From the UHGV virus genome UHGV-0019120: a DNA stretch of 31,192 bases; one strand, written 5' to 3'. Position numbers and translations under genes: made by a program. The notes under the pieces are model-generated. The model was not told the origin of the DNA. It saw only the letters and a list, made by a program, of their open reading frames with translations, and ran no database searches. This DNA is from a virus. Below, in pieces: positions 6,960 through 28,203 of the stretch (position 1 is the stretch's first letter; every line of letters begins with the position of its first letter).

Positions 6960-6960
6960 A

Positions 6961-8276: not shown

Positions 8277-8281
8277 AATCG

Positions 8282-8404: not shown

Positions 8405-8802
8405 TGTATGGCCCTTACAGGCCGTTTCACGGCATCCCCACCGACGAAAACAACGCGAGAGCAAGCACGGCTGCTTGTGCTTGCATGTACGGCAACGGAG
8501 AATCCTCCCCTAAAGTCGGTGCCCGGGTGCGAATCGGCGGGAAGGTCCACAGGTATTTTACGATTATTTTAAGATTAGTAATAGGAAAGAAATTAAACGA
8601 AAAAACTCGTTTATTTTCACAAAATCAGTAACCTACCCACAATCTGTGAGTTTGCAGGCACAACAAGAACCACAATTTTTTGAAGCATAATAGTGGACTA
8701 TTATTACCTTTTGGGTAAAATTAACTTGCTGCTTGTGCTTGCGTGGTTGTTTATACAACGACGTTATGCTGAAAGGACCGCGAATCCGATCAGCACGAAA
8801 GA

Positions 8803-8828
8803 ACCGTCCTCAATAGGGCGGTTTTTTT
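8803..8828 (+). terminator. intrinsic terminator within the non-coding region
   Basis: ACCGTCCT-CAAT-AGGGCGGT stem (one G-U wobble) followed by T7. Confidence 0.5.
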
Positions 8829-8883
8829 GTTTCTGCCTACCAATAAACCCACGCTATGTGGTTGTCTCTGTTAAAATCCCGCC

Positions 8884-8994
8884 GTATTGACATGAATGCG
8901 CCATTGGTGGACACTTTCCGAGCCGTAGCAAAATCTACGGTCGGGATTGGAACCCCGTAGACACAATGGCGCATACCGCGTTAGCGGTTTTTTT
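8884..8994 (+). ncRNA. candidate structured small RNA (c4-like antisense regulator)
   Basis: Extended -10 TGtTAAAAT near 8866-8874; 9-bp outer stem 8898-8906/8964-8972 enclosing two hairpins, one with loop ATTGGAAC; ends at short hairpin plus T7 (8975-8994). No ORF. Confidence 0.35.
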
Positions 8995-9160
8995 ATGCGT
9001 AAAGCACTGCTACACCCAAATTATGGTGGGGCGTGCGGGGGAGTCGTAAGACTCGCCGGTTCGTCATTGTGTCCGGTAGTTCCAACCCTGCACGTCTCAC
9101 CACCCAATGATTGGAACCTGACGGTGGTGAGTATCCTTAACCTTTAAGGGAATCATCACA

Positions 9161-9352
9161 ATGACAAACCTACCCCATGACTATTACGTCAACCTCGTAA
9201 AGATCCTTCTCAAGAAAGCCTCATACGCCGATAAATTCCGCCTGGCTGAAATCATCGAGCGCGAAGCTATGCGCATCGCCAGCAACGATAACGCTGTTTC
9301 TGACGCAAAAATCTCCCTCGTAACCAAAGTAGTTATGGGAGGTGCAAAATGA
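9161..9352 (+). CDS. small protein translationally coupled to the antirepressor (icd-like position)
   Basis: 63 aa; AAGGGA RBS; stop overlaps start of the next gene (ATGA-type overlap at 9349-9352). Confidence 0.4.
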   Translation: MTNLPHDYYVNLVKILLKKASYADKFRLAEIIEREAMRIASNDNAVSDAKISLVTKVVMGGAK

Positions 9353-10494
9353 AAACGCTTCCGACCGTTAACACCCTACAGCCTATCCTGCATAACCAAA
9401 TCCCTGTCATTACTACCGAGTTACTAGCACAGCTTTACGGCACTGAGCCGGTGCGTATTCGCCAGAATCATCATGAGAACAAAGCACGTTTCGTTGAAGG
9501 GAAACACTTTTTCAAAGTTGTTGGTAATGACCTTAAAGAATTGCGGGTAGCTTTAAACTACTCTCAAAATCCAGTTTCACCTAAAGTCCGCTCCCTCATC
9601 CTCTGGACAGAACGCGGGGCTGCACGTCACGCTAAAATGCTCGAAACCGATCAGGCGTGGGATGTATTCGAACGGCTGGAAGACTGCTACTTCAACCAGA
9701 ACGCGCAAACGGCCGCGACCGTAACCGTCTCACCAAACAATGCTCGTGAGGTTGTCGATACGCTCAACGCTAAACCAATGTATTACGTTAAGGTGTGCAA
9801 CAACGAGCCACTCACAACCTCAGCCGATGTTGCCCAGGCATTCAGCACCACAAACAATTCCATCGTTATGGCCATCGATGCGTTACGCATTCCTCGCACA
9901 GCTGCGGCGCGTCACTTCTTTAAAGAACAACGACCGCTGGAAGGAAGCGACCGCGAAATAACAATCTATCGCATGACAAAAGACGGATTTACCTTGCTCA
10001 TGGAAAGTATCGACGGTCCAGGCGTGAAGGATATCAAGCTGGCCTACATTGAAGCCTTTAACGCTATCAGCAGCATGTTAAAGGCAGAATACGAGCGAAT
10101 GCTATACAACCGACTGTATCAGGAAACAAAGATTATCCGAACGGCAACAGAACATCATCGGCTATTAACGGAACCAAACTACCGCAAGACACTAATCAAA
10201 GAGTTTGACAAGGCGACGGAGAAAACTAAAGCGGCACTAAATCTACCAACAATGACTAAAGATGATGTGATATCAGCCTTACTTCTTGATCTGCTCAGAA
10301 ACGTCAGAGCACTTATCAGTTTTGACGAAAACCTGAATCCTCAGCTCAAGCTACTACCACCGACAGGCAAAGTAGTCGACCAGGCTGATCACAACAGCAT
10401 ACTCAGCGTTCTGGATGCAAACCTGCCAGCCAGGACACTACAGGATCTGATAAAAACATGTGCTGATAAGCTGGCACAGAAAAGCAGACCATAA
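9349..10494 (+). CDS. phage antirepressor / regulatory protein (ORF6N-like plus Rha-like domains)
   Basis: 381 aa; N-terminal ITTELLAQLYG...EGKHFF...ILWTERGAARHAKMLETDQAWDVFERLEDCYF resembles ORF6N; central TTSADVAQAF...YRMTKDGFTLLM...IEAFN resembles Rha. Confidence 0.7.
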   Translation: MKTLPTVNTLQPILHNQIPVITTELLAQLYGTEPVRIRQNHHENKARFVEGKHFFKVVGNDLKELRVALNYSQNPVSPKVRSLILWTERGAARHAKMLETDQAWDVFERLEDCYFNQNAQTAATVTVSPNNAREVVDTLNAKPMYYVKVCNNEPLTTSADVAQAFSTTNNSIVMAIDALRIPRTAAARHFFKEQRPLEGSDREITIYRMTKDGFTLLMESIDGPGVKDIKLAYIEAFNAISSMLKAEYERMLYNRLYQETKIIRTATEHHRLLTEPNYRKTLIKEFDKATEKTKAALNLPTMTKDDVISALLLDLLRNVRALISFDENLNPQLKLLPPTGKVVDQADHNSILSVLDANLPARTLQDLIKTCADKLAQKSRP

Positions 10495-10498
10495 CTAC

Positions 10499-10524
10499 AA
10501 GGGGCTACGGCCCCTTACTCTTTT
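10499..10524 (+). terminator. intrinsic terminator after the antirepressor gene
   Basis: AAGGGGC-TACG-GCCCCTT hairpin followed by T-rich ACTCTTTTCTCTCT. Confidence 0.6.
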
Positions 10525-10693
10525 CTCTCTTATCAACACCAGAGACTTTCTGAAAATCCTTTCGAATAGCGTCAGCGTCACGCGCCAAGCCCATACTCGA
10601 ACGTGTCGCCATATGACGAAAATGATCAACTGCCGGAAACAAAGAAATAATGGACCCAATAGCTTGCAGCAAACTCGCTTTTCTACGCATCAT
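10505..10693 (-). CDS. hypothetical small protein
   Basis: About 62 aa from ATGATG at 10693 with GGTGGA RBS; track ORF extends to 10717 with a GTG start. Confidence 0.3.
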   Translation of the reverse strand: MMRRKASLLQAIGSIISLFPAVDHFRHMATRSSMGLARDADAIRKDFQKVSGVDKREKSKGP

Positions 10694-11230
10694 AATTCCA
10701 CCATAACCGATAGCCACCCTTCAGACACAACCCCCCCTCCCCCCATACAGGGTGTCCTTTACCGGAGTTCCGGCCCCTTCTCAAAAGCATCAAAAAAAGC
10801 TCGAGATCGAGTACCGGAACTCATGCCACCAGATAGCTCCACATCGTTTCCAATGCTTCGCCGCCGTGTGCGCCCTGTGGCCCACAATCATGCCATTGGT
10901 CGTCTGATATACCTTCTTCTGCTCATTGAGCACAGGCGAGTTGTCGCACTCCTGCCTTTCTCAGACTCGACTTAGTTTAGATCGCTGTTCCTGGCTTGCG
11001 TCAGCACACTTTCCCCTTGTACGCATACCCGCGCGCCACTCCGCCCAAAAACACCGAACCCAACGAAGTGGCAAAGACAACGACGCGAGCGTGAGTCTGA
11101 AACAGGCACCAGTAAAAAAGGGGTTGCAGGCGCAAAAAGATTTGATTATCTTTAGACGCAAGAAAGCCGCCCCAATCAAGAGGTGTCTTTTTAAATCCAG
11201 CCTACCAAGCAAGATTTAAATTTCAGACTG

Positions 11231-11256
11231 AAAACCGCCCGGCAAGGCGGTTTTTG
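11231..11256. terminator. bidirectional intrinsic terminator
   Basis: AAACCGCC-CGGCAA-GGCGGTTT stem flanked by A4 upstream and T5 downstream. Confidence 0.6.
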
Positions 11257-11583
11257 TCTTTCTGGCGCTTACATTACACCACCATAAAACGATCCGTAAA
11301 GGATCATTTGATCCCTTGTTCCAATTCTGACGACACTTTAACCTTTTCCCATACAAGGGTTTGCAGCCTTAACAGAATCGCATCTTTATCAAGGTGTGAA
11401 AGATCCTTAACCATATCGTCAAACGACAGAACGCGAATGGCCATCTCAATGACCCTCGGCGGCTCGCTCCTGCGTCCAGTTCATCCCACGACGCCATAAT
11501 TTCAATTCATAACCCGTCATAGCATCCTCCTCGCACAATATTAACACTCGCAAAGTGTCAAAATGACACTTTGCGTATTGTGT

Positions 11584-11964
11584 TTACTTAACGAGGAATA
11601 AAAATGGTTTATTGTTCGGCGGTGTAATCGGGGCTGGCTCGCTTTTGCTCATGCGATCAGTGTACCAGGCCAGCTCCTTGTCAAAGTAAGCCTGATTAAA
11701 ATAGGCCATGAATGTAGTTTCAAATCCATAACGACCGCTAATACGCAGCATCTGATTGCCGTTCTCTGTTTCCAGATATACCTGGGCACGTTCCTGATTC
11801 TCCTTCAGCCAGGTTAAAGCCTCATCGCACGAGGACACACGATACTCATCATCGTAGCCGTCATCGATGCGGCTTGAAGAAGAACGGCAAATCACGCCGA
11901 CAGAACCAGCCAGGATAGTTTGAATTTTAAGGAAAGCGTTTTTGCGGATTTTAATCATGCTCAT
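11584..11964 (-). CDS. hypothetical protein expressed from promoter block copy B
   Basis: 126 aa; GGAG RBS; immediately downstream of repeat copy B; followed by a 27-bp perfect palindrome (11549-11575). Confidence 0.5.
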   Translation of the reverse strand: MSMIKIRKNAFLKIQTILAGSVGVICRSSSSRIDDGYDDEYRVSSCDEALTWLKENQERAQVYLETENGNQMLRISGRYGFETTFMAYFNQAYFDKELAWYTDRMSKSEPAPITPPNNKPFLFLVK

Positions 11965-13731: not shown

Positions 13732-14027
13732 ACATCTGTTTTGTTATCAATGAAGATTAACCCTAACCCAGCGAAGTAACACAGCAGCGCCCAGGCTGCA
13801 TACGGAATGCTGGATCTGGATGTGGACTCCTTTAACATCTGCCAGTTGCGAACATTGCGACTATCTTTTAAGCCTAGTTTTTTGGCTAACTGCGAGCCGC
13901 TCATTCCGGTCAGGCCAATGACTGCCCGAACTTCTCCACATGTAGGAGATTCCCATTCATCCGCTTTTTTTAAACAAGCCGGATTCAACATTTTTAAAAC
14001 AGTATCTTTATCCATAACCATCTCCAT
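13728..14027 (-). CDS. XRE-type HTH protein with C-terminal hydrophobic segment
   Basis: 99 aa; HTH LTGMSGSQLAKKLGLKDSRNVRNW then a roughly 20-residue hydrophobic stretch IPYAAWALLCYFAGLGLIFI. Confidence 0.45.
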   Translation of the reverse strand: MEMVMDKDTVLKMLNPACLKKADEWESPTCGEVRAVIGLTGMSGSQLAKKLGLKDSRNVRNWQMLKESTSRSSIPYAAWALLCYFAGLGLIFIDNKTDV

Positions 14028-14029
14028 TT

Positions 14030-14658
14030 ATTATATCTACGATGGTAGGAAATCTTTTCCTATGTAGCAATAGAAATTTACTACATTGCGTATAAGACAA
14101 GTTTTCTATGTCTAATAGGAAATGAGGTTTCTTACGTTTTATCGCGTTCTGATGGCTACTGTGTGCGTATTTATCGACGTTTATTGATAAGGCTCGCCCC
14201 TTCCTCCTGCAAAGCCCGGCCGTAGGCCTTATTTCGGCCTTATATAAATTGATTTTGTATAGTTCGAAACGCGCCGTTTCGAAAAGGATGATCAGGCTGC
14301 TCCATGCCTCCGGCAAGTGCCGGAGGAGGTATATTTGAGCGTAGCGACTCGAACCGGCGCGAGCTTTAGCTCGCTGCAAGGGCGAACATATTCACAGGCA
14401 AAGCCTGTGTAAGTTAAATAAAGAAAGTCTTAATAAAAGAAAGTAATTTTGCATTTATTTGTTTAGTGCATCTATTATAAAAAACCATTTGCATATACAT
14501 ATCAAAACTGTGGATAACTTTATTAGCCGATGCCTGTAAAGGCGATATTTTTGCTGTGTTCAGGTTTAGAGAAAATTAATTTAGATTGTTTTTTGAACAG
14601 ATGTTTTATTGCGACGTAGATAATCCTCCGGTAAAACCGGATTCATCATTCAGGTGGG
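14030..14658. other. candidate replication origin (oriR-like) downstream of repA
   Basis: AT-rich tract 14400-14600 with perfect DnaA box TTATCCACA (minus strand, 14509-14517) and a cluster of GC-rich perfect hairpins at 14263-14409. Confidence 0.45.
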
Positions 14659-15639
14659 TTAATGTTGGAGTGATTTCCAGGTCTTTCTTAACCTGTTATA
14701 ACGCTGCTCAACGAGGGATCGTAAATATGCAAGGTCAGCTCCAGGATACATGCCATCAGCAAATTCCTGGCTAACCTCTCTAGTGATTTGATGACGAAGT
14801 TCGGCCTCTCCCTTTTCCCGAACAAGACGCGCAGCTCTCTCCGCTGCTTTCTGTTTTGCCTTTATCTCTCTGGCCGTCTTCCTCTGACGCCATACATTCT
14901 CCATCTGCTCCTGAATAACAATACGCTTATAATCAGCCTCCGTTATCGCTTTTTTAAGCCGTTCGCTATTCCTCGCATTGAAGTAATTAAGTTTCTGGCT
15001 AACCGCACGTCTCCATGCTTGTTCAGTAATACCAACGGTTTCCAGCAGTTGATCACGAATCTCTATTTTCGCAGGCCAATACTGTTTATTCACCCGATCC
15101 CAGCGACGTTCATAATCAATAAAACCTAACGCTTTCAGTTGCGACAACGCCCTTGTACAGCGCGTTATAGACTTGTTCCCAGCTTCGGATACGGTAGACA
15201 GGCCGCAAAAATCAGACAACGCCTCAGCACTGGCCAGAACCCGCTTAGAAATGATGTTTACATGGTACAACATCGCAGCAATCAGAGCATTAAACGCCCG
15301 ACGACGATGTTCGTTTATCCGGCGTTTCCGCTCTGACGGTTGATTAACGTAGAACGCAACCTCACACGTAAGATCACGACCATTAATGCGCTGTAAAGCA
15401 TCAGATAACACCAGCGGCAGCTTGTGCGTATGGCGCTTTGGAGGCTGGAACTCCGGCGACAAATTACAAACGTAAGCTGAACGTAGAGACGGCATTGGTC
15501 TATCCATATGTTCGCTCTTGCGTCCACGGAAAACCAACGTATAATGGGAGTTGTCGAGGCGCCCATGGATTGTTGTTGTTGGTTTTCCGTGGATGTCGCA
15601 AGAAGCCCGCAGATTTATCTGCGGGCTTTTTGTTTCCAT
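14659..15639 (-). CDS. repA: IncFII-type plasmid replication initiator RepA
   Basis: Central LSTVSEAGNKSITRCTRALSQLKALGFIDY closely parallels R100/R1 RepA1 as I recall it; Arg/Lys-rich coiled C-terminus also similar. Start uncertain: ATG 15639 or internal ATG 15507. Confidence 0.75.
   Translation of the reverse strand: METKSPQINLRASCDIHGKPTTTIHGRLDNSHYTLVFRGRKSEHMDRPMPSLRSAYVCNLSPEFQPPKRHTHKLPLVLSDALQRINGRDLTCEVAFYVNQPSERKRRINEHRRRAFNALIAAMLYHVNIISKRVLASAEALSDFCGLSTVSEAGNKSITRCTRALSQLKALGFIDYERRWDRVNKQYWPAKIEIRDQLLETVGITEQAWRRAVSQKLNYFNARNSERLKKAITEADYKRIVIQEQMENVWRQRKTAREIKAKQKAAERAARLVREKGEAELRHQITREVSQEFADGMYPGADLAYLRSLVEQRYNRLRKTWKSLQH
15520..15635 (+). ncRNA. candidate antisense copy-control RNA (CopA-like) opposite the repA 5' region
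   Basis: 15-17-bp perfect inverted repeat (15524-15538 / 15578-15592) then a strong plus-strand intrinsic terminator (15603-15632); no plus-strand coding potential. Promoter not identified. Confidence 0.35.
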
Positions 15640-15675
15640 ATCTGGTCATTTTCCAACCAGACACCCACAATCATA

Positions 15676-15690
15676 ACCACGTTACGTGGT
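15676..15690. promoter_or_regulatory. CI-type operator palindrome upstream of repA
   Basis: ACCACGTTACGTGGT, same ACCAC-N5-GTGGT architecture as the immunity operators; abuts a minus-strand TATGAT -10 candidate. Confidence 0.5.
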
Positions 15691-16105
15691 TTTACGAGAA
15701 CTCTACCACAACACTTTCGGTCATGCACGAAGTCTCTCACTGATCGAACGATAATCCACCAGTAAAAGGATCTAAATTGGATCTCGTTTTGCGAGCATCA
15801 TACTACTGGCCTAACTCCAGTCAATGATTCCCAGCCAGAAACCTGCGGTAAACTCATCGTTCAGCAATATGCTGTCCGGCTTCAAAGATAAGGTGACATC
15901 ATCCCTTAACAGCGCGGCCAGTTCAGTTAAAGGGCTGTTCTGATTTAATGCTGGCCACTCATACCTGGTAATAAGTGGTCAGTCTTAACACTCACCATTT
16001 GATTGCACCCGTGTTGACGATTTGTTACTGGATATCAGACACGCTGGATAGCCAGTAGAAACATACCATTAAAATTATTACAATAATTGGTCACATGATT
16101 ATCTT

Positions 16106-16669
16106 ATGCTGAATAATAAAGATATGAATATTAATGAACTTAAAGACTGTATTCACTATGAAGTAATCGGTAGCGAGCGTCCTTTCTCCTGGCGAAAGGC
16201 AATTGTTCGCGCAATAAAACATAGAAGGGTTCGTTATTTATTTTGGTGGCGCATAGCCAAATACCTTTTTGATAAAGGCGGATACTGTCGGAAGATTGCG
16301 GGAAAAATAGAACGTTTCATTCTTGATAAATATAATGTAACAGTCCCTTTAACTGTAAATATAGGGAAAGGCTTTGATATTTCTTATCTCAACAGTGTTG
16401 TTATCGGTCACAAAGTAACAATCGGTGAAAATTGTTCAATTAAGCCCGGAGTAACTATTGGACTTCGCGGGGAATTTAATGATATGGATATTGTTATAGG
16501 GCATAATGTGACCATTGGTTGTAATGCCACCATTCTTGGTGGCAAAGTGCGTATAGGAAACAATGTCACAATAGGTGCTCATGCATTGGTATTGCATGAT
16601 ATTCCTGATGATTCAACATTCATCACTAAATTTCAGTCTGAAGTTATCTGCTCGTCCTCCCGAACATAA
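16106..16669 (+). CDS. hexapeptide-repeat (left-handed beta-helix) acyl/acetyltransferase
   Basis: 187 aa; repeated [LIV]-G-x-x-x-x-I-G hexapeptides; only plus-strand gene next to the tail module; 3' end overlaps the convergent fibre assembly gene. Confidence 0.6.
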
Positions 16670-17250
16670 CCCTGATTCATCAGCTCTGGCCATACGATAT
16701 CCGGAGCTGTACTGGTGTCAATTCTACTCACTAATACTCTGTATTTTCTCCAGGAATCCAGTTGTGAATTTTCCTCGTTTGTTGCTATTTCAAGATTAAC
16801 TGCATCCTGCAGAATTGCGATGTTATCTGTTGCTTCCTGGATCAACCTTGCCTTTTTCTCTTCCGCTTCCCGTATCCGAAACAGTTTTTCTGCTTCCTCA
16901 TCCGTCACCCAGGATACGCCGTCCCACTTCTGATACTCCCCTGCTGGCGACAACCAGGTGACATTCTCTGGTAGCGGTCCGAGTTCAGAAATAAACAATG
17001 CGTCCCCCGACGCCACGTCATAGACCGTTTTACCACGATGGTCTTCAACAATATTCCACGATTCATTTTCACTGTTAAAAACTGCCACAAAGCCAGCAGG
17101 AATTTCCGGTGGGGCGATATCTGTAGAATTAGCTGGCAGCCCTGTATGAGGTGGAATATATGCGTCACCTTCACCAATAAACTCATTAGTTCCGGCCAGC
17201 AGGTTATAAATTTTTACGGTACGTGATTGTTCACTCATTCTGAATGCCAT
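16633..17250 (-). CDS. tail fibre assembly protein (gpG/Tfa-like)
   Basis: 205 aa immediately downstream of the tail fibre; sequence style typical of Tfa chaperones. Confidence 0.8.
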
Positions 17251-20096
17251 TATGCAAGCCTCACAATATAATTAAATGCGATGTTTTTAACGGTGTTTTC
17301 CGCGTTACCAGCAGCGTTAACGGTGATGGTGTGTCCATGTGAACCAATCGCAACAGAGTGCGTATGAGCGCCAATACCAACAGTGTGTGCATGTGCCCCA
17401 GCACTTGTAGCGGTACCTGATACTGAGTGGGTATGTGCGCCAGAAGAAGGCACAGTTCCATTCCCCACCACCGTGCCACTTGATGAACCATCCAGCCAGT
17501 CGAAATTCATACCGCCACTGTTTGGTCTCCTTAATGGAACGGTATGAGTATGTGCGCCAGCACTATTTGCAGTACCAGATACATTATGGGTATGTGCACC
17601 TGTGTTATTCGTTGATTTAGTACCGTAATCAAACGACGATGTGGTTTTCGTACCCAAATCCGTATTGGATGCGCTGGCACTGTGGGTGTGCGATTTAATG
17701 CCATCCTGTTCCTGAGACAATACGGCCCGACCACTGGCGGGTTTGCCCTTGATTGTCCAGCCGCGCATATCTGGAATAACACCAGAAGGATAGGCAATAG
17801 CCAGTTTCGGATATGCTGCCTTATCAAACGTCTGCCCCTGCATGATTGCATAACCTGCAGGTGGCGTATCTGATGGCCACGGCAGCGGAACACCTGGCGG
17901 AAACGCTTCAATATTTGCCGAGCCGTCAAATTTTACGCCGTTAATTGTCCTTGCCGTTTTCAGCTTTGTTGCTGTAGCAGCATTGCCGGATAGTTCGCCT
18001 GAAAGACCACCGCTGAATGTCTGTTTCGCCATCCATGTCTGAGCTTCGTCGATAATTGGCACACGTCTTGTCGTGATCGTGCGGCTTCCCGGATTTCCTG
18101 AAATGCGAACCATAAAAAAGCGGTAGTTGGCTTTACTTACAGTGCTGCGCCATACATGCATTGAGCGTCCCGAACCAGAATCATCACTCGGACCGACTGA
18201 GATGTTTATCAGGTTGCCATCAATGACGCCCCAGTCCATACCGTCGGGAATATTGGTCATGTTATCAAGCCGAACGGTTATCAGACTGCCCGGCACAAAA
18301 TCGTAGGTCTGCCAGTCCAGGCTGGTGAGCTTTGCCACAGCACCGCCGATACCCAGATTCAGGGGAAGTGAATACGAGGTGTAGACTTCCCGCCATTCGC
18401 TCCATGAGCTGCCGGTAAAGACGCGCTCAAAGGTGCGGCCTTTAAGGGTTGTACCTGTTCCGGCAGTTGTATAACGCTGCCATACATTAACACCATCAAA
18501 CCGCCTCAACACTTCCAGAATACCGAGGACTGTCACGCCGTTTCCGTCCAGTACTGGACCGTTGGTCGCTTTACCTGTAACGCTGTAAATACCTGGTGAA
18601 GTCACATCATTCAAATCCCCGTCGTAATAACGACTCTCTGACTGATGACCGACTCTTAACCACGGTTCCCACTGCGGATTTGATGCATCCCAGCTTGCCG
18701 CAAGGCAGCGGACGTACATATTTCCACGGCGAGTGGTATAACGTTGCGTTCTTCCATAATTCCCGCCTTCGAGGATCTCAAGCGTCCCCTGAGCAAAGCC
18801 GCCTTCCTCTGGATAATTGCGTTCATATGAAGCTATAGCCGAGCTACTGTTACGCCATAAACCAAGATGCTCGGCGGCTCCAAGCGTATTCAGGTCTATA
18901 GTCGTACTCAAAGAGCGGGTAGCTGATTGAGTGTGACGCCATATGCCCCACGGACCATCAGAGCCATTCCACTTATTGGCGAGTCTGCGTATGTATACAT
19001 TGCCGTCTCTCGTGGTGAAGCGTTGCGTACCTGCAAAATTGCCGGCAGCAAAAACCTCAAGCACACCGACAGCATTATCTTCCGGGAAATTTTTCTCCAG
19101 TGTTGCGTTAGTTGAGGTAGCTTTAGACCAGATCCCCAGATAAGCCTTAACGGGACCAAATGTATTCAGATCAGCATCAAGCGGCATTTCGCCATTGTTT
19201 TTCATAAACGTCAGGCTGGTAACGCCAACATTGTCCAGAAAAGCTGATTTATCCTGGATATCTGCACCGTTCTGATTTTTCGCCAGACGTGAATTTGCGT
19301 TGTCATTTGCTGCCTTGACCGCTTTTGGCGTTGCCGCCTGCGTTTCAGACGTACTGTTAGTGGCACTACTGAGCTGAACTATCCCTTTTTGTGCCGTGGT
19401 GGCATTCTGGGCGGTATATTTTCCGTCAGCCAGGTCATATGCAGCCTTAACAGCCTTAGGCGTCGCTGCGAGCTTTTCAGACGTGCTATTGGTGGCATTA
19501 CTGAGTTGAACAATGCCTTTTGATGTTAAAGTTGCATCAGGATGATTACGTGATTGCTCATGTTTTACAATAGCTTGCTTAAGCCGCTTTGCTGAAACAG
19601 CCAGGGAATCATCTGTACCTGCATCAATTTCTTGTTCATTAGCAAATCTTGCTACTCCAACAACAGTTTCGGTTGCGGGAGGGTTAATAAACTCAACATC
19701 ACCAAATGTAATGTTTTTAGTATCAAGATTTTTAATTGCTATATCACTTGATATTAAAGCAATTGTAGAAGATGCTTTATTTATTATTACTTGTTCTTGC
19801 GAGTATACAGCAAACAATGTTCCTTTATTTGTATACAAACCTATTGTATGGACAACATACTCATCTTTACTATCATCCTTCGCAGTTACATGAATGGTAT
19901 CAGGAGAAACGACTTTGCCTCCTATTGTGGTAAGTCGCTTTATTTCATCTGTTATTTTTGTTTGTGTGGTTGATGTGGCATAATATCTACTACCTAAACC
20001 AACAGAAACGATCTCAACTTTATTTGTTCCAGTCTTGTTGGCATTAACCAGCGCCTTACGCCCGGCGTCAGTCATCGTAAATAATAATTTACTCAC
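17250..20096 (-). CDS. tail fibre protein (P2 gpH-like, His-box C-terminal domain)
   Basis: 948 aa; [16 protein letters not shown] and duplicated QLSxATNSTSE..[10 protein letters not shown] repeats match P2 gpH as I recall; C-terminal GAHTH repeats typical of receptor-binding tips. Confidence 0.85.
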
Positions 20097-20126
20097 GCTT
20101 AATTCCTTGGATTAACAAATCGCAAA

Positions 20127-20708
20127 TTAGCACTCACCAATTAATCGTACATAAGACACAGGCTGGAAAGCACCGACAATACCAACACCACCTGAAACAT
20201 TGGTTGCTTGCGAAAATGTAAATAGTGTTCTTGCCGACTTTGCACTCTTGATACTTCTTAACGTATCCTCCAACATCTCTTTCGAAGGAACAGCACCATC
20301 AAAAGAGTTAATCGAAGCAACAATTGAGGCTGTATATGGTTCGCCAGGTGGTGATGTTTCAAACCATTCTGTTATGTTTACCTCTCCACCCAAGCTATTT
20401 ACTACATCTTCAACCGCTGCCCTTGTACCCTTTATTCGCTTTGTTCGTATTATTGATTTAAAAACAGAACGCTTTAACGATACAGGCCAACTATCCCTCC
20501 ATGTATCAGCATTCCATTGCCAAGCTAAATGATCGAGAACAACTGAGTCCAGGTTATCAACAACGCTATATATTTCTGTCTTATATATTAAATTGTTAAT
20601 TGCTTGTAGTTCATCATCAATAGCTTTCGACATAGCTATCACGTTGGGATCGCTAGCTAAGTTAGGAGGTAAAACATCCAACAAGCTAACATTAAAGATA
20701 TCAGCCAT
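20127..20708 (-). CDS. baseplate protein gpI-like
   Basis: 193 aa; position between J-like and fibre genes. Confidence 0.65.
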   Translation of the reverse strand: MADIFNVSLLDVLPPNLASDPNVIAMSKAIDDELQAINNLIYKTEIYSVVDNLDSVVLDHLAWQWNADTWRDSWPVSLKRSVFKSIIRTKRIKGTRAAVEDVVNSLGGEVNITEWFETSPPGEPYTASIVASINSFDGAVPSKEMLEDTLRSIKSAKSARTLFTFSQATNVSGGVGIVGAFQPVSYVRLIGEC

Positions 20709-21825
20709 CCTCTAACCCCGCATACTGGCAATTTATATTTCTCTCTCTGGCGACCTGTGTCTCTCCAACCACAGTAAAAACAGGACTTGATATTTCTAAT
20801 CTTTTAGCCCCAGCATTTTTTAAACGTTGAATAATTTCATCTGGATTTATATCTCTTCCCATAACCGAACGTTGCCATTGTTTATACTCATCAATAGCTT
20901 TCTCAACCTCACTTTGAATTAAAGTTGTTCTGTTTTTGTCCGATGAGTTAATCCAGTATTTAATTATTATATCGTATTCAATGCTCTCTGGTTTCTTAGC
21001 AAGAACTTTATCTGTGAATGGTCGAATATTAGTTGCAGAGAGAACGCTATTTATCTGCTCTAATAGTTCATCAGAAGGTATATCTCCGTTCTCTAACAAA
21101 GAACGGATTTCTACAATTCCGGGCGATGGTGTATATACATTCACATCTTTTATATTCTGATTGGCTGTTCTTGTCCAATATTTATAAGAATCCTCCGGCC
21201 CTGCTGTAGACAGTTTTTCCGGCGACAGTTTTATTCTTTCAGCATAATTATCATCTGACTCCGTATCAGCACCAGAATTAGATGTTGTTACATTCCTTAC
21301 GCTGGAAACATACGGCAACGGAGTCACCAACTCATTTATTTGCCCTGGTAAAAAGCCATTCCCAGATAAACCAGGTATAACAGCATATCCTGAGACTGTA
21401 CCAACTGTTTTCCCAGCAGGTATTTCCAACAAAATATCTGTTTGGAAAATAACACCATTTCCAGTTGAAACTTGAGTGCCAGCAGGTATTGTATATATCC
21501 CCGATAATTTTGTTGACAGATTAAACTCAAATGTAGTCAAGGCAGATTGAGCTTCCAGCCTAGGCGTATCCGTCAGATAGCCTATATGGTCGAGATATTC
21601 ACCTTCACCATATGTAAGAAGGTTTTGTTTTGCAGAAAAATCGATAGCTTTTCTTTGCTGTATAATAATCTCACACAATGATAAGATGAATAATCTACGT
21701 GGATCAGCAGGTGCTAATGTTTCACCTGTTATACTCTCAAAAGCCCTGATTGAACGAGTTGTTATATCAGTCGGGTTAGAATCTGCGAAAGTAATATCTG
21801 GCAAACCACCACGCGGCAACGTCAT
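20701..21825 (-). CDS. baseplate protein gpJ-like
   Basis: 374 aa; size and position fit baseplate J. Confidence 0.75.
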   Translation of the reverse strand: MTLPRGGLPDITFADSNPTDITTRSIRAFESITGETLAPADPRRLFILSLCEIIIQQRKAIDFSAKQNLLTYGEGEYLDHIGYLTDTPRLEAQSALTTFEFNLSTKLSGIYTIPAGTQVSTGNGVIFQTDILLEIPAGKTVGTVSGYAVIPGLSGNGFLPGQINELVTPLPYVSSVRNVTTSNSGADTESDDNYAERIKLSPEKLSTAGPEDSYKYWTRTANQNIKDVNVYTPSPGIVEIRSLLENGDIPSDELLEQINSVLSATNIRPFTDKVLAKKPESIEYDIIIKYWINSSDKNRTTLIQSEVEKAIDEYKQWQRSVMGRDINPDEIIQRLKNAGAKRLEISSPVFTVVGETQVARERNINCQYAGLEDG

Positions 21826-22142
21826 TCTCTAACTCCTATCACAAGTTTTGGCCTAATAAAACCATCAGAAACGTCCGTTCTTTCAAAAGTAACAGAATGG
21901 ATAATCGCTCTAGGCTCAAACTCACTAATTTTTTGAATTATTTCTCGTGTTGCTGTAGCAATAAAAATTGGACTAGGGCTATCAACAAGACTTGAATTAA
22001 TTCCTAATTTTCTGGCATATGGTACAGTGCCAATTTGAGTATTAATAATAGTAGAGACATTTTGCAAAACTTCTTCTACAACTGTTTTGGGCGACCAATC
22101 AATCGAGTAAGAAGGTGATGATATGGTAAACGTATTATTCAT
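21822..22142 (-). CDS. baseplate wedge protein gpW/gp25-like
   Basis: 106 aa; conserved EPR motif region (ISEFEPRAIIHSVTF). Confidence 0.65.
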   Translation of the reverse strand: MNNTFTISSPSYSIDWSPKTVVEEVLQNVSTIINTQIGTVPYARKLGINSSLVDSPSPIFIATATREIIQKISEFEPRAIIHSVTFERTDVSDGFIRPKLVIGVRE

Positions 22143-22606
22143 AATAATTTACCTAACGCACTTCTAGTTTTTGACTCTATATTGCCAGCAATATCAACTA
22201 ATGCTTCTTTCAGAGAGGTCTGTCCGACTTCCTGTAATTTAATGCCGACGATAATCACTCGTGGATTCCCAGTTGGACCGAAATAAGTCCATGATTCCTC
22301 TATATCTGTAATTATAAAATTACCAAAATACTGAATACCAATTACAACAGGATTTACTTCCTGAATTGATTGCATTGTCCTAAGTAATGAAAGCGCAGCC
22401 AATGGAACAATGCCAAGTGTTGTATCCAACCGCATATTAAAACTAACTTCATCCAGATCTGGACCTATATCCTCCAGAACAGGTTTAAGCCCAATAACAT
22501 CATGGCGCGCTACACGACGCTTTGACGTCCTTTTAAAATTGTTGAACGTATTCACCACTATTGATGAGGCAACAAAAGGCATTGTACCAAGCATACCCAC
22601 AATCAT
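22139..22606 (-). CDS. hypothetical baseplate/tail protein
   Basis: 155 aa between V-like and W-like genes; family not recognised. Confidence 0.35.
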   Translation of the reverse strand: MIVGMLGTMPFVASSIVVNTFNNFKRTSKRRVARHDVIGLKPVLEDIGPDLDEVSFNMRLDTTLGIVPLAALSLLRTMQSIQEVNPVVIGIQYFGNFIITDIEESWTYFGPTGNPRVIIVGIKLQEVGQTSLKEALVDIAGNIESKTRSALGKLL

Positions 22607-23223
22607 GCCTGAGCCTCCGTTGTCGGAGCGTATTCCCCCTGAGCTGTGTGATGGTGGCCTTTAGATTTAATCCCATCAACATCTATATCACCACCAACAA
22701 CCTTAACATTCCCAGAAATTGTAGCTGCAACACCTCCAGCAGAAGATCCTTTCATTCCACCTTTGAAGGTTAGTAATCCTTCAACTGTAGCATTTCCGGT
22801 AATGATGGTTTCTGGAGCATCAATAGTTACGGTTCCTGTAGCCTTAATGGTTACATCTCCGACAGCATCAACAAGGAGTAAATTAGATTCTCTGTCTATC
22901 TCAATACGAGTTCCGTTATTAAATCTAATGACGCGTTTATTAACAGTATTAGATGGCGGCTTCTGTGTTTCATCATAAAAACTACCAAGAATAAAACCTT
23001 GTTGCGGCCCCGCGGGATGAAAGATACACAAAACTTGCTCACCAATATCTGGCATCCAGTAATCAGCATTCTTATCTGTATTTTTCACAATAACTGATAA
23101 CTTTGCCGAAGTGACGTTATCCTGATCATCGAAAGTAACTCTTGCTGTAACATCACCATCATCAATATCAGAAACAACGCCAACTCTTATAGTCTGACGT
23201 AATAATGTTTCTAAATCATTCAT
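22603..23223 (-). CDS. baseplate spike protein gpV-like
   Basis: 206 aa; GEQVLCIF...GSFY and Gly/Val-rich beta-helix-like C-terminus parallel P2 gpV. Confidence 0.7.
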   Translation of the reverse strand: MNDLETLLRQTIRVGVVSDIDDGDVTARVTFDDQDNVTSAKLSVIVKNTDKNADYWMPDIGEQVLCIFHPAGPQQGFILGSFYDETQKPPSNTVNKRVIRFNNGTRIEIDRESNLLLVDAVGDVTIKATGTVTIDAPETIITGNATVEGLLTFKGGMKGSSAGGVAATISGNVKVVGGDIDVDGIKSKGHHHTAQGEYAPTTEAQA

Positions 23224-23225
23224 AA

Positions 23226-24227
23226 TTAATACCCATTAATTACTCTTCGGACATCAATCGAGGTGGTATAACCACTAGTCCCAATTGAATGCACAGCTTT
23301 CGATATAAGATATTTTCCAGAAAATGAACCGAATCCCTCCAGATTTATAGTTACACCAGCTACCAATCTGGTGTCTCCAACCAATACTAAAGATCCGGTA
23401 TTTTGATATCTATTTTTAAGCCGCAAAGCAGCCTTTGCCTTACGTTTTGCTTCATCTAAATTAGCTACCAGTTTTCTTATCTTAAGATTCGACCCTTCTT
23501 CTACGGATGGATCTACCCAAGTATACGAAAGCGACTTTCTTTTTTTAGGTACGCGATATTTGCACGTGCAACTTTTATACAAATCTGTAGATTGTGTGCT
23601 AAAGCTATATCTGATTATCTCATCAATACCTAACGTAAGCGTAGCGATAGGATCTTTTTGCTCAAACATCTCTTGAGCAAATATTATTAATTGGCTATCA
23701 GTGACCTTTAACGACAACCCTTCATCCTGGCAAAGTCGATGGAGAAATTTTAAATCGCTTTCCTCCATTTGATCTTCACGCGCATAATATGGATTACTAT
23801 CACCATCAATAAGAAACAACAGTTCAAGGTTAGCTAATTTAGCTATAGAAGTTGCTATATCTTTAAGAGTTGTTTTTTCCCATGCATTACTTTTTAAATC
23901 ACGTCTAATGCCTGATGAAATAGGAACAGAAACAGCAGTTACCTCAACCACAGAAGGTGGTCCAGAGCAAGTTATGCCATCTACCTGGAATTTCCCGCAC
24001 TCAAGGACGATTTGATTTATAGGCTTAAAGCTCAAATCAATAAAATCACCCTTTTTAGGTGTCCAGTCTCCAGACCATTTCCCATCATCATTTTTTAATA
24101 TAATAGAAATATCATCGACCTGACCATCTTCATTATCTGTATAAGACATTGACAAAACATCAGGTGACATATGAGCGGTAATATTTACATTCTGATATAT
24201 AACATCAAAAAGCGTTTTACGTAACAC
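23226..24227 (-). CDS. putative gpD-like baseplate hub protein
   Basis: 333 aa after the X-like gene; assigned by position and size. Confidence 0.55.
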   Translation of the reverse strand: MLRKTLFDVIYQNVNITAHMSPDVLSMSYTDNEDGQVDDISIILKNDDGKWSGDWTPKKGDFIDLSFKPINQIVLECGKFQVDGITCSGPPSVVEVTAVSVPISSGIRRDLKSNAWEKTTLKDIATSIAKLANLELLFLIDGDSNPYYAREDQMEESDLKFLHRLCQDEGLSLKVTDSQLIIFAQEMFEQKDPIATLTLGIDEIIRYSFSTQSTDLYKSCTCKYRVPKKRKSLSYTWVDPSVEEGSNLKIRKLVANLDEAKRKAKAALRLKNRYQNTGSLVLVGDTRLVAGVTINLEGFGSFSGKYLISKAVHSIGTSGYTTSIDVRRVINGY

Positions 24228-24435
24228 TATTGCGTCTCCACGGAGGAAAATTGTTTACTGATATTGGCATAACCGGAGCATCAGGAACTTTAAGAATAAT
24301 TCCCGCAGAAAAAAGCACCGTAAAGCGGTGCTCAGTATTAGCATCAATAAGAAGATAAGACAGGTACTCATTACCATACAACTTTAAAGCGATACTATCC
24401 CATGAGTCCCCTTGAACCGTTCTATAATCATCCAA
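24217..24435 (-). CDS. tail protein X-like (LysM domain)
   Basis: 72 aa; YRTVQGDSWDSIALKLYGNEYLSYLLIDAN is a LysM-like motif. Confidence 0.65.
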   Translation of the reverse strand: MDDYRTVQGDSWDSIALKLYGNEYLSYLLIDANTEHRFTVLFSAGIILKVPDAPVMPISVNNFPPWRRNSVT

Positions 24436-27220
24436 AACTTAATCTCCGTTGTTGGAACATATGAGCACTCAATTTCTTCTCAAAATCAGAATATCCCGCA
24501 TCTAATGCTCTTTTAGCTGCCGCCTCAGTTTCCTTTGGTGAACCAGCCGGAAGATTGATTACAGGTGAATAGGTTATTCCACCAGTCACAGCGTTAACGT
24601 TCTGGCGAGGTCCAGAAGTCCCAGCGGCAGATATCCCGTGAGGTGATAAATTTGATTGCCCGAACTTGCTTGCTATTGCATTCTGTAAGCTGTTATTCCT
24701 GCTAACACCTGATGCCAGAGTAGTCATTATTGCACCACCTGACTTTGTTAGCTGTGAGAATGGACCTTTTTTCGCGTCAGAGAACGGTAAATACTCACGT
24801 ACAGAAGAAAAAACGCCTTTCACTTCATTAATTAAAGCATTTGCTTTTGATTTTATCCCAGTGATTAACGTCTCAATTATTTTTGCGCCTGACTCACTCC
24901 AGTTTATTCCAGATAAATAAGTCGTTACAGATTGGAATGCTCTTATAAAGAGTCCAACTGGTGAAAAACGCATAAAAACAGATACCAGTGTATCTATGAT
25001 TTTCTTTCCTGTTTCGCTCCAGTTAATGCCAGAAAGGTAATTTGTTGTAATTTTAAATGCTTTAATTAAGAACGGAAGCGGAGACATCCATTTAAAAGCA
25101 CTAATTAATGTACTGTAAATTCTTACTCCTGCCGAACTCCAGTTTATGTTGGAAAGATAATCCCATGCTTTACCAAACATAGATATAATCCATCCATTGA
25201 GGTCAAAGTTTAAGATAAAGTTTTTTATAGCCTCAAATGATTTAACTGTATATTCCTTAACAGAAGGCCAAACTCTGACAGCATAATCTCTGATCTTATC
25301 CCAATTCTGATAGAGCAATATTCCTGCGGCAACCAGCGCAGATATAGCCATCTGAATCCACCCGAAGGGTGTTAGCTTTGTCGCTACAGATAAAGCCAGC
25401 ATAGCTACCCTACACGCTATAACCACACTTTTCATGGTTAGAAACGCACCTGCCGCCATCACTATCTGAGACACAAAATTGGGGTTGTTAGCTACAAATT
25501 CACTAATTTTTGTAATCAGCGGAACCAAAACACTAAGCGCGGCATTCAAAGCAGGTTGCAAGGCCTGACCAAAACTTAATGATGCATTGCTAGCCTGAAT
25601 ACGTAATTGTTTCAATCGCTCCGCATTATCTTTCGTTATGTTGGCAAAATCGCGGTCAATAACAGCACTTCCAGCTCCAAGAGATGTTGCTTTGATTCTC
25701 TGGTATTCCTTCCAGTTTTGAATCATCGGACGAACAAAGTTCTGAACCTGCATATCGCCAAATAGTTCACCAAGTAACTTCTGATCTCCGTTCTTAGTCA
25801 TTTTCATGACAGAATGCATTGCAGCTTCGAATGGATTCTTCCCTTTTTTCTGCGCTGTTGTAACAATTTTATATAAATCTACACCGAAATTTTTCTTTGC
25901 TTTTTTTAGTGTTTCAGGGGAAAGTATTTTTGCCAAAAAGTTGTTCATATTATTAGCAGCCTCATCCGAAGTTGCAGCCCCCTTGCGAGCTATCTGCAAA
26001 GCTGCACCCATCGTCGCGGCTGCTTCTTTACCTCCCATTTTTAATGCCTGGAACTGAGCACCAAGCACAGGAAGATTTTTGGCCATATCTTTAAATTCAA
26101 AGTTCCCCTCTTTCCCTGCCTGAACCAGAATCCCCATTGCAGACTTCATTTGAGATGGATCAATCTTCAATGAGTCACTTAATGTAAATGATGCTTTCGA
26201 GACATCGAGGATATCAGAGCCAGTAGCTGTAGCTGTTCGCCCAATAGTTAGTAGATTCGCCTGAGCCTCTTTATAATCCTGCCCAGCAGCGACGAGAAAA
26301 CCCTGAGCGGCCTGAATATCAGATGCAAACTGGTTGGTAGCCGTTCCGGTAACAAGCATCGCCTGCCCCATCGCCTGAACTTCTTCCGGCTTCATATCTG
26401 CCGTAAGACCAATCATTTTGTTTTCACGATTGAAATTTGCTGCATTGTTAGCAGCAGCAAATGCACCAGCCGCTACAGCACCAGTTTGTAATCCTGACCT
26501 TACAAGTTGACTCTTTGCCTCACCAAGATGCTCTCGCTTCAATTCACGCTGCCTTTCCAACGCGCGGTTTAACTCCTCCTGAGCACGTTTTACTGCAAGA
26601 ACATTTTTCCGTGCTTCAGCCAACGCATTTTTATAGCTGTTAATTTTATCAATACGTTGTTTTTCTAATGCCCGGTTAAGTTCCTCCTGCTGTTTTTTCA
26701 CTTGCTGAACATTTGCTCTGGCTAAAGCCAAAGCCGTTCTGTAGCGGTTAACCTGCTCAACGCTACGGGCCTGAGCCTCACGATTACGATCAATGCTGGC
26801 TTTAAGCTCTTTCTCTCTTGAGGCCAAAGCTCTGGCAGATGTATCAGCTCCCTGATAGGCAGACTTTAAAGCGGCCAGTTCTTCACGCTGAGAACGTAGT
26901 GATGCTCGTAAATTTGATGAATGTGTTTTTGCCTTCTCAAAGTCACGAAGCATCGCTCTGGTTGGATTGGCCGTGTTTTTTATTTGCTTCTGTAACTCTT
27001 CAACGCGAGCGGCAGCTTTATGATATTCGAGGGCAGTCTGTCCAACCTTTACTTTTACAGATTGTAGCTTTTGAATTTCCCCATGTTCTTTCGTTAATCC
27101 AGCAAGCTCTGCATTTAATTTAGCAACAGCCTGATTAGCTGTAGTAAAACTTTTGGGGAGAGAGGCGGCAACTTTGCCGCCAATTTCAAAAGCCAGCTTA
27201 AAGTTCTTATTGCTGGCCAT
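24428..27220 (-). CDS. tail tape measure protein
   Basis: 930 aa; long Ala/Lys/Glu/Arg-rich helical N-terminal half, hydrophobic segments, tandem SGINWSE-containing repeats; directly after the chaperone genes. Confidence 0.8.
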   Translation of the reverse strand: MASNKNFKLAFEIGGKVAASLPKSFTTANQAVAKLNAELAGLTKEHGEIQKLQSVKVKVGQTALEYHKAAARVEELQKQIKNTANPTRAMLRDFEKAKTHSSNLRASLRSQREELAALKSAYQGADTSARALASREKELKASIDRNREAQARSVEQVNRYRTALALARANVQQVKKQQEELNRALEKQRIDKINSYKNALAEARKNVLAVKRAQEELNRALERQRELKREHLGEAKSQLVRSGLQTGAVAAGAFAAANNAANFNRENKMIGLTADMKPEEVQAMGQAMLVTGTATNQFASDIQAAQGFLVAAGQDYKEAQANLLTIGRTATATGSDILDVSKASFTLSDSLKIDPSQMKSAMGILVQAGKEGNFEFKDMAKNLPVLGAQFQALKMGGKEAAATMGAALQIARKGAATSDEAANNMNNFLAKILSPETLKKAKKNFGVDLYKIVTTAQKKGKNPFEAAMHSVMKMTKNGDQKLLGELFGDMQVQNFVRPMIQNWKEYQRIKATSLGAGSAVIDRDFANITKDNAERLKQLRIQASNASLSFGQALQPALNAALSVLVPLITKISEFVANNPNFVSQIVMAAGAFLTMKSVVIACRVAMLALSVATKLTPFGWIQMAISALVAAGILLYQNWDKIRDYAVRVWPSVKEYTVKSFEAIKNFILNFDLNGWIISMFGKAWDYLSNINWSSAGVRIYSTLISAFKWMSPLPFLIKAFKITTNYLSGINWSETGKKIIDTLVSVFMRFSPVGLFIRAFQSVTTYLSGINWSESGAKIIETLITGIKSKANALINEVKGVFSSVREYLPFSDAKKGPFSQLTKSGGAIMTTLASGVSRNNSLQNAIASKFGQSNLSPHGISAAGTSGPRQNVNAVTGGITYSPVINLPAGSPKETEAAAKRALDAGYSDFEKKLSAHMFQQRRLSFG

Positions 27221-27225
27221 TAGTA

Positions 27226-27408
27226 TTAATCCTCATTAAACACGTCAATCCATGCGACGATTCGCCTCAACCGAAGCGAAAGCCAGTAGGATATAGGTGT
27301 TGATTGAGATGATTGAGATAGAGAACTCGCGGCCCTCATTATTTGCTTATCAATAGGTTTTTGCTCATCAAAACCTACGAGAGCAAAAAATTCTGTACCT
27401 TTTGACAA
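27226..27408 (-). CDS. tail chaperone frameshift extension (E-prime-like)
   Basis: No ATG; lies in the -1 frame relative to the chaperone gene, overlapping its 3' end across slippery heptamer TTTTTTG. Confidence 0.5.
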   Translation of the reverse strand: MSKGTEFFALVGFDEQKPIDKQIMRAASSLSQSSQSTPISYWLSLRLRRIVAWIDVFNED

Positions 27409-27656
27409 ACTTTAACAAAGTCTTTCGCTGGTAATCCATTCAGATACTCTATTGGACGACCAATACAGCGAGCAGCCAAGGCTGCATGGACTTTATTATC
27501 AAGTGATGTTTGAACTGAAACATGCCCTTGAGATTGCAGTAAGTCCGATACCTCTAAAATATCACTGCCTTTTAGGTTGTCTAAATCAAGGTTGAGTTCA
27601 GTCACCGGCTCAAAGTCTTCAAAACGATATTCTTTACTTAATTTAACGGTTTCCAT
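27375..27656 (-). CDS. tail assembly chaperone (P2 gpE-like)
   Basis: 93 aa, acidic, between tube and tape measure; ends ...QNFLLS with TTTTTTG embedded in the last codons. Confidence 0.6.
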   Translation of the reverse strand: METVKLSKEYRFEDFEPVTELNLDLDNLKGSDILEVSDLLQSQGHVSVQTSLDNKVHAALAARCIGRPIEYLNGLPAKDFVKVCQKVQNFLLS

Positions 27657-27665
27657 TTTGTCACC

Positions 27666-28187
27666 TTATAAACCTAAATCATCACGAACGCTTTTTAATA
27701 TATCTTCACCATCAAAGATACAAATAAAGTTCAACTTATCAATTTCCAGGACTTCTTTTCCATCAATAAATAATTTGATATAGAGAACTTCAAATTCATT
27801 CTCTGAATCAGTAGCCTTTGCCACCTGTAGCGAACCTAAATCCAGTTTTTTAGGGTTTAGCTTCATTGAAGCCCGAATAGGAACCGTTTTATATTTTCCT
27901 GTTCCTGCATCATAAACCTGCTGGCTACCGCGAAAATCTACCTGATGCGATGAGGATAGAAATAATTTTGTACCAGCAGAGGTCAGAGTTCGCCATTTAA
28001 GAGAGACAGTCATTGGTTTGAAATGCCCCAGCGTTCCGCTCTCAAGCTCTCCAGCGATACCTGCACCACTAACAGTTTCTGTCATCATCTCAATTGATGG
28101 CAGCTTTGCGTCAGCAACACCGATAATACGGTTTCCTTCACCGTATACTGTAAAGTTAATAAGTCTCTCAGGAATTTGATTGCTCAA
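27666..28187 (-). CDS. tail tube protein (P2 FII-like)
   Basis: 173 aa; INFTVYGEGNRIIGV...LPSIE and C-terminal FIDGKEVLEIDKLNFI parallel P2 FII. Confidence 0.7.
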   Translation of the reverse strand: MSNQIPERLINFTVYGEGNRIIGVADAKLPSIEMMTETVSGAGIAGELESGTLGHFKPMTVSLKWRTLTSAGTKLFLSSSHQVDFRGSQQVYDAGTGKYKTVPIRASMKLNPKKLDLGSLQVAKATDSENEFEVLYIKLFIDGKEVLEIDKLNFICIFDGEDILKSVRDDLGL

Positions 28188-28203
28188 AGCAACCTCCTAT
28201 TAT

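Follow-up and report, generated by a model that had tools for sequence, protein, structure and literature searches.

The tail fibre gene of the viral genome UHGV-0019120 changes abruptly in base composition part of the way along its length, which raises the question of whether the fibre is assembled from pieces of different origin, and of whether the change marks the place at which they were joined. The stretch analysed, referred to here as the window, is 31,192 nucleotides (nt) long and, judging from its genes, is part of a circular element of about 48 kb, an Escherichia coli phage-plasmid with a P2-type contractile tail and late genes of about 38-40% GC. With a probability of roughly 0.9, the fibre is a hybrid: an AT-rich anchor native to the phage-plasmid backbone would carry a distal end that came from a P2-like prophage, together with its tail fibre assembly chaperone gene (tfa) and an acetyltransferase gene, and that replaced an invertible fibre switch of the Hin type.

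The two ends of the fibre have different closest relatives. At 91% identity or more, the N-terminal 188 amino acids (aa) are found solely in a family of 46-52-kb phage-plasmids and in the Yersinia phages vB_YpM_39, vB_YpM_41 and vB_YpM_44, the matches being to 58 Escherichia plasmids, 1 Klebsiella aerogenes plasmid and these 3 phages. Identity of the N-terminus is 94.7% to vB_YpM_41 and 95.2% to the K. aerogenes plasmid pC161661-2. The next relatives are Salmonella plasmids, at 68%, followed by P2-like phages of Burkholderia, Halomonas and Zymomonas, at 47% or less. The N-terminal domain of P2-type fibres, PF12571, matches weakly, with 16.7 bits and thus below the cut-off of 23, and residues 1-170 can barely be aligned with gpH of a chromosomal P2-like prophage (L011). 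As a whole the protein does not belong with gpH of P2 (Peduoviridae), being P2-type only over its distal 73% or so. Variation in the N-terminal part follows the backbone, not the distal end, and five different distal ends are attached to it.

Residues 701-948 are 100% identical to gpH of prophage L011, and from about residue 264 onwards most 100-nt windows are 93-100% identical to it, the exception being a segment of the shaft at 18345-18645. Identity drops there to 68-82%, between flanks of 95-100%, which indicates what is probably further fine-scale mosaicism inside the cassette. The tfa gene is 99-100% identical in nucleotide sequence to that of L011; the sister backbones are without it and have other tfa genes. 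Against the fibre of vB_YpM_39, identity is about 93-95% over residues 1-263, and beyond approximately residue 263 there is no similarity. DNA like that of the distal part is present in other phages: P2 gene H is 94% identical in nucleotide sequence over 17941-19393, P1-like plasmids match 16036-19228 at 94.8%, and lambdoid genes of the StfR/TfaR and TfaQ types match the tip and the N-terminal part of Tfa at 82-87%. Extra junctions that appeared near 17895-17955 (in vB_EcoM-473R2 and NZ_CP099756.1) are the ends of the records and not recombination points. The preliminary description of this DNA had proposed that the distal fibre and its chaperone were gained by recombination, which is supported by the different closest relatives of the two parts and by the sharp boundaries of homology described below. 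It was also correct that Tfa travels with the tip. The extent of the cassette had been underestimated, as the acetyltransferase gene and a fragment of gpU also belong to it and it reaches 15853.

P2-like elements match the window over 15853-19393 by blastn, the right end being 19377 by megablast. The block is present in full, at 92-96% over 15853-19377, in more than 35 chromosomal P2-like prophages. Prophage L011 is 99-100% identical over about 16045-17945 (about 2 kb), and another, L004, is 94.6% identical overall. On the left, backbone homology to vB_YpM_39 and pC161661-2 is unbroken to 15852, a point that lies 32 nt inside their invertase gene, counted from its 3' end. This remnant is recognised by contiguous nucleotide homology only; in a protein search it gives 10 aa at an E value of 0.4, which is not significant. 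The gpU fragment that begins at the next nucleotide is marked by PGAP as a coding sequence missing its N-terminus, and full-length gpU lies directly beside the acetyltransferase gene in prophages L004, L005 and L011. No patch of homology is found at 15852/15853, where the shared sequence is a few bases at most. The left join is, to all appearances, illegitimate, with the 3' end of hin fused to the 3' end of gpU. Both genes are full-length in their source contexts and truncated in the window, so the arrangement in the window is the derived one and the prophage segment replaced the switch.

The gene order in the donor-type prophages L005 and L011 is gpT, gpU and acetyltransferase on the plus strand, then tfa, gpH, gpI, gpJ, gpW and gpV on the minus strand. 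The FI-FII-E-E'-T-U tail block of donor-type prophages is inverted relative to P2 (L005 3506-9091, L011 516-6091, L004 545-4936), and it is because of this inversion that the 3' end of gpU abuts the acetyltransferase gene in them. Their gpD is annotated at just 262-266 aa. It is possible that these widespread prophages are defective and yet act as a reservoir of fibre cassettes.

On the right, the junction lies within the second of two Phage_fiber_2 repeats (PF03406, matched at 4.3e-41 in two stretches). In a three-way alignment of the window, vB_YpM_39 and L011, all informative sites of this repeat that are 5' of column 139, in gene orientation, are those of vB_YpM_39, and all from column 143 onwards are those of the prophage. 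The crossover is thereby bracketed to 19338-19342 (about 5 nt), at codon 252 or thereabouts, where the parents are about 80% identical. By this alignment it is a homologous crossover, inside a conserved Phage_fiber_2 repeat. The junctions of two further relatives, L007 and the Salmonella plasmid L009 (Table 1), are independent of it and show that exchange has been repeated between codons ~172 and ~265, which on these alignments is a zone of repeated exchange. At 7001-11236, L007 has a 792-aa fibre, a 92-aa open reading frame (ORF), a 346-aa tail protein and tfa, and its invertase is also lost. Its junctions, at the equivalents of window positions 15828 and 19429, differ from those of the window, so this is an independent replacement at the same locus.

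What was replaced can be seen in the sister elements, vB_YpM_39 and pC161661-2 among them. Between the flanks they carry a distal fibre, tfa, an inverted tfa'/Sv' pair and a Hin-family invertase, and the invertible part in these relatives is bracketed by 83-nt inverted repeats (90%). In the window, tblastn with Hin finds nothing besides the 32-nt remnant. There are no long inverted repeats in 14000-20200, the longest being 27 nt at 78%, and no alternative Sv'/tfa' genes are present on the opposite strand of the window, where the ORF is that of the acetyltransferase. An intact serine invertase and inverted repeats around the Sv/tfa sets are thus both found in the sister elements, and neither is found in the window.

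Table 1. Features of the fibre locus, and limits of homology in relatives, in window coordinates
Feature or relative	Position	Strand	Details
Tail fibre ORF, 948 aa	17250-20096	-	Two Phage_fiber_2 repeats, Collar domain, short fibre repeats
Fibre codons 1-~200, predicted AT-rich N-terminal baseplate-anchor domain, backbone-native	19497-20096	-	GC 0.36, GC at third codon positions (GC3) 0.21, like gpI/gpJ genes
First Phage_fiber_2 repeat, aa ~192-221	19434-19521	-	Still backbone-type, shared with vB_YpM_39; 80% identical to 19302-19389 (direct-repeat pair)
Second Phage_fiber_2 repeat, aa ~236-265	19302-19389	-	Homology patch with latest crossover; direct-repeat pair with first repeat
Fibre codons ~253-948, predicted acquired shaft and receptor-binding tip	17250-19337	-	Collar domain aa 735-782, His-x-His repeats; PF07484 and PF03335 matches
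Tail fibre assembly chaperone Tfa, 205 aa	16633-17250	-	PF02413 Caudo_TAP at 4.6e-40
Predicted left-handed beta-helix (LbH, hexapeptide) acetyltransferase, moron	16106-16669	+	PF00132 at 1e-12; PGAP start 16124
gpU (P2-family tail gene) 3' fragment, last 30 codons and stop	15853-15943	+	tblastn gpU aa 133-162, 93% identity, E 1.6e-11
hin-type DNA invertase gene remnant, last 32 nt (~10 codons and stop, YRRFLAGNH*)	15821-15852	-	Contiguous nt homology
vB_YpM_39 (L001)	Left flank 14112-15852; right flank 19303-22000		97.5% (left); 96.0% (right)
K. aerogenes pC161661-2 (L008)	Left flank to 15852; right flank from 19302		98.3% (left); 96.1% (right)
pZ0117EC0148-4 (L010)	Right flank from 19303		94.3% (right); left flank not assessable, locus without repA flank
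L007 (NZ_CP070136.1)	Junction at 19429		Codon ~222; another fixed invertase-less fibre set
Salmonella L009	Junction at 19579		Codon ~172; backbone 70% identical

The composition break itself, which the preliminary description had judged by eye, is real and is the strongest GC change-point of the window. In 300-nt sliding windows, GC is 0.47-0.54 over 17300-19499 and 0.32-0.35 over 19500-19999. The maximum-likelihood single change-point for GC in the fibre gene is at gene nt 600, which is window position 19497 (codon ~198), with GC of 0.36 upstream and 0.503 downstream. For GC3 it is at codon 197, where the value goes from 0.208 to 0.459, with a 2-log-likelihood (lnL) interval of codons 189-207. 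The lnL gain at the fibre change-point is 19.8, far beyond the 500 codon shuffles, which average 2.9 and reach 8.5 at most. Of the cuts made by recursive segmentation of all 31 kb, the one at 19496/19497 is the strongest (lnL gain 69.9), and GC is 0.508 in the segment 17300-19496 and 0.396 in 19497-31192. The proximal part is AT-rich like the baseplate genes (GC 0.34-0.40, GC3 0.20-0.29), as had been described, and it is longer than the 150 or so codons first proposed, at about 197-200. The junction is correspondingly not at 19600-19650 and is instead at about 19497-19506, some 100-150 nt further 3' in gene orientation. The rest of the fibre and the Tfa gene are indeed more GC-rich, the latter moderately so in comparison with the baseplate genes (GC 0.46, GC3 0.42). 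The acetyltransferase gene, though inside the acquired block, is AT-rich (GC 0.37). A local rise of GC to 0.44-0.46 is also seen within the tape-measure gene, at about 25500-27000.

The 5' edge of the first Phage_fiber_2 repeat is also the site of the GC change-point, which is about 160 nt upstream of the latest crossover (~19340). The GC3 step at about codon 200 is also present in vB_YpM_39, L007, pC161661-2 and pZ0117EC0148-4, and the E. coli, Yersinia and Klebsiella relatives examined all have it, relatives that keep the invertible switch among them. Because all of these show it, the break is to be seen as an older feature, the limit that separates the baseplate anchor from the exchangeable part. 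It predates the latest swap and marks the proximal limit of the zone of repeated exchange rather than the newest event, so that its earlier identification as the swap junction does not hold for the latest event. The P2-like donor fibre of L011 is without such a step, with GC3 of 0.56-0.62 in its N-terminus and baseplate genes of 55-60% GC. The distal module holds its own GC of about 50% in both backbones, that of the P2-like donor and that of the phage-plasmid.

Some of these observations weigh against a hybrid fibre of prophage origin. The break and the newest crossover do not coincide, and to equate the one with the other fails for the latest event. Composition alone cannot tell which part is native, since the plasmid or early half of the element, at 47% GC, is similar to the distal fibre. 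In addition, no sampled prophage matches the whole block uniformly (L011 falls to 68-82% over 18345-18645 and L004 is at 94.6%), so that either the exact donor is unsampled or there have been later exchanges.

The element as a whole is in two parts by composition, with 47% GC in window 1-11914 (early/plasmid) and about 40% in 19497-31192 (late structural operon). This opens the way to an account with the polarity reversed, in which the AT-rich anchor and late operon were the incoming DNA and were joined to a plasmid adapted to E. coli in which the GC-rich fibre end was already present. The 47% GC of window 1-11914 and the 47.6% of repA are like the distal fibre, and it is the late operon, at about 39.6%, that is the compositional outlier. 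Such a history is nevertheless very unlikely for the fibre. All family members examined, including the Salmonella plasmid with the 70%-identity backbone, share the late operon and the repA flank and differ in their distal fibres, the shared parts being called AT-rich only where composition was measured, and the direction of the latest event can be read from what is left of hin and gpU. The two-part composition may instead reflect an older chimeric origin of the whole phage-plasmid family, from an AT-rich tail module and a GC-normal plasmid module, which may be a different and earlier event.

It is barely credible that the break results from constraint at the level of protein or expression, with a shaft rich in Gly, Ala and Thr set against the anchor and no foreign origin. 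The distal fibre is certainly rich in Gly, Ala, Ser and Thr, and GC at first and second codon positions (GC1 and GC2) over the whole fibre gene is somewhat above that of the baseplate genes. However, the largest shift is at synonymous third positions (0.21 to 0.46), and since the break is in GC3, amino-acid composition is no explanation for it. The same distal DNA, at 92-100%, is also found in P2-like and P1-like backbones with quite different flanking GC (55-60% for the P2-like baseplate), and the homology to the sister backbones stops abruptly. Almost no probability attaches to an invertible segment of the Mu G or P1 C type, held in one orientation, with the break as its constant/variable (Sc/Sv) boundary, because, although the sister elements carry a switch exactly there, between fibre and repA, the window has 32 nt of invertase left, no Sv'/tfa' and no inverted repeats beyond 27 nt at 78%, and the inverted repeat of vB_YpM_39 is at about codons 451-479 rather than at codon ~200.

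Very probably, the history of the hybrid fibre was as follows. The ancestor of this sub-lineage had a Hin-invertible fibre switch next to repA, as its sisters still have. A single replacement then took the switch away, and in its place came about 3.5 kb (15853-~19340) of DNA of P2-like E. coli prophage origin, comprising the gpU 3' stub, the LbH acetyltransferase, Tfa and fibre codons ~253-948. The N-terminal 170-200 residues or so probably dock on the element's own baseplate and would never have been exchanged, while the distal part would be drawn from a pool shared by enterobacterial phages. By analogy with what is established for P2 H/G, Mu S/U and lambda Stf/Tfa, in which anchor-baseplate contact, receptor recognition by the tip and folding by Tfa are known, the swap may have replaced the virion's receptor specificity with that of the P2-like donor tip. 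The loss of phase-variable switching would have fixed that specificity, and Tfa may have been co-inherited because the tip needs its cognate chaperone to fold.

In P2-like prophages, in P1-like plasmids and in the present phage-plasmid alike, the acetyltransferase gene accompanies the same tfa and the same tip. It is convergent with tfa, and the two overlap by 37 nt at their 3' ends (16633-16669), so they are physically linked in any transfer of intact tfa. In NCBIfam the enzyme comes closest to EpsC, CysE and WcaB (polysaccharide/serine O-acetyltransferases), with each match under the cut-off, and the nearest PDB entries are serine acetyltransferases, at 1e-12; NCBIfam has no family for the fibre or for Tfa. 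A speculative and rather unlikely idea is that acetyltransferase, Tfa and tip form a co-selected 'adsorb-and-mask' unit, in which the enzyme would O-acetylate the surface polysaccharide recognised by the tip and so shield lysogens from phages with the same tip. If true, this advantage would explain the linkage of the trio in three unrelated backbones (P2-like prophages, P1-like plasmids and the RepA phage-plasmid) and how it came to displace an invertase-driven switch here and apparently in P1-like plasmids too. In L003, a 13-kb locus from the P1-like 98.8-kb plasmid NZ_LR890336.1, the acetyltransferase-tfa-distal-fibre block is joined to a P1-type fibre N-terminus (5001-8193), and no invertase homologue is found within these 13 kb around the cassette. 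In this plasmid the P1 C-segment/cin switch may have been replaced in parallel. Beside the cassette, an unannotated gap at 4255-4518 of L003 holds fragments of group II intron D1-D4 (Rfam RF02001, RF01998).

The nature of the recipient is clear from near-identical records. Window 15700-19600 is 100% identical to the 47,904-bp circular E. coli plasmid NZ_JBSTQL010000004.1, which is annotated with repA, parA, a RelE/ParE toxin-antitoxin pair, holins, an endolysin and P2-type tail genes. The RepA of the window (IncFII-type) matches PF02387 at 6e-45, and upstream of the fibre gene are homologues of P2-type gpI, gpJ, gpW and gpV. Judged by genes alone, replication and partition functions are therefore combined with virion functions on one circular extrachromosomal record, as in phage-plasmids, and related elements have been isolated as the Yersinia phages vB_YpM_39, vB_YpM_41 and vB_YpM_44. 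Between 19 and 23 or so near-identical non-mobilizable plasmids of 47-50 kb have identical junctions, with fibre N-termini 98.9-99.5% identical to that of the window, as would be expected if the block was acquired once. The literature was searched for a published account of this family of about 48 kb, or a name for it, and gave only a preprint listing vB_EcoM-613R2; the tyPPing preprint has nothing on it, and 'pO111', taken up as a literature lead, is unrelated.

Some other features of the window are of a kind known from P1. The annotation of the identical plasmid gives the minus-strand ORF at 3997-4401 as a recombination-enhancement nuclease of the Ref family, which P1 also has, and such a nuclease might favour exchanges of this kind. 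Rfam matches at the gathering score are ryfA (8254-8550, minus strand), isrK (8922-8994, plus strand) and C4 antisense RNA (9019-9107, plus strand), the last directly upstream of a 381-aa ORF (9349-10494, plus strand). This suggests a probable P1/P7-type immI (c4-ant) immunity region in the phage-plasmid. A scan of 15600-20300 for promoters and terminators found no excess of sites over shuffled sequence.

If the fibre is the hybrid proposed here, the locus documents at near-nucleotide resolution how a clinically common E. coli phage-plasmid lineage traded a phase-variable host-range switch for a fixed receptor-binding module. This is of use in host-range prediction and in the annotation of these elements, and the Phage_fiber_2 repeat offers splice points for fibre engineering. 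It also calls for caution in composition scans, where a GC break may be the long-term boundary between anchor and exchangeable part and not the newest crossover.

Mosaic tail fibres, with horizontal exchange of distal segments along with their chaperone, were reportedly described by Haggard-Ljungquist et al. in 1992 and by Sandmeier in 1994. The kind of event seen here is thus already known, as classical enterobacterial tail-fibre mosaicism, and the understanding of fibre evolution is unchanged by it. What is new in this instance is the recipient family, the replacement of a hin switch and the preservation of both scars.

In the mosaic fibres of P2 (H/G), Mu (S/U), P1 (S/U) and the lambdoid phages (Stf/Tfa), distal segments are swapped together with the assembly chaperone (PMC8986868). 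The present fibre has the same modular plan: its 5' end is specific to the backbone, its 3' end and Caudo_TAP chaperone are common to unrelated phages and inherited together, and its junctions are in conserved fibre repeat motifs (PF03406). Unlike in those cases, the cassette entered a phage-plasmid of the RepA type, whose AT-rich late operon makes the junction visible in the composition, and the cassette adds an acetyltransferase gene and a stub of the donor gpU. The sister phage-plasmids and vB_YpM_39, vB_YpM_41 and vB_YpM_44 have, at this locus, the architecture of the Mu G/Gin, P1 C/Cin and Hin switches; in the window, by contrast, the system has been deleted and replaced, and the fibre is fixed in one form.

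Relaxed homologous recombination allows temperate phages to pick up DNA from resident prophages, which are often defective (De Paepe et al. 2014, PMC3945230). The crossover patch here, about 80% identical between the parents, and a donor type that is a chromosomal P2-like prophage common in E. coli are both in keeping with this, although one end of the event (15852/15853) is illegitimate. Phage-plasmids are reported to act as recombination hubs (PMC10879196). Modules of fibre and cognate chaperone are also shared between distant phage families, for example in Alteromonas phages (PMC10579305). In that case, as in this one, a fibre end is transferred jointly with its chaperone from one backbone to another, unrelated one. 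Those modules differ in their hosts and in the families to which fibre and chaperone belong, and the module of the phage-plasmid also includes the gene for an enzyme of the surface-modification type.

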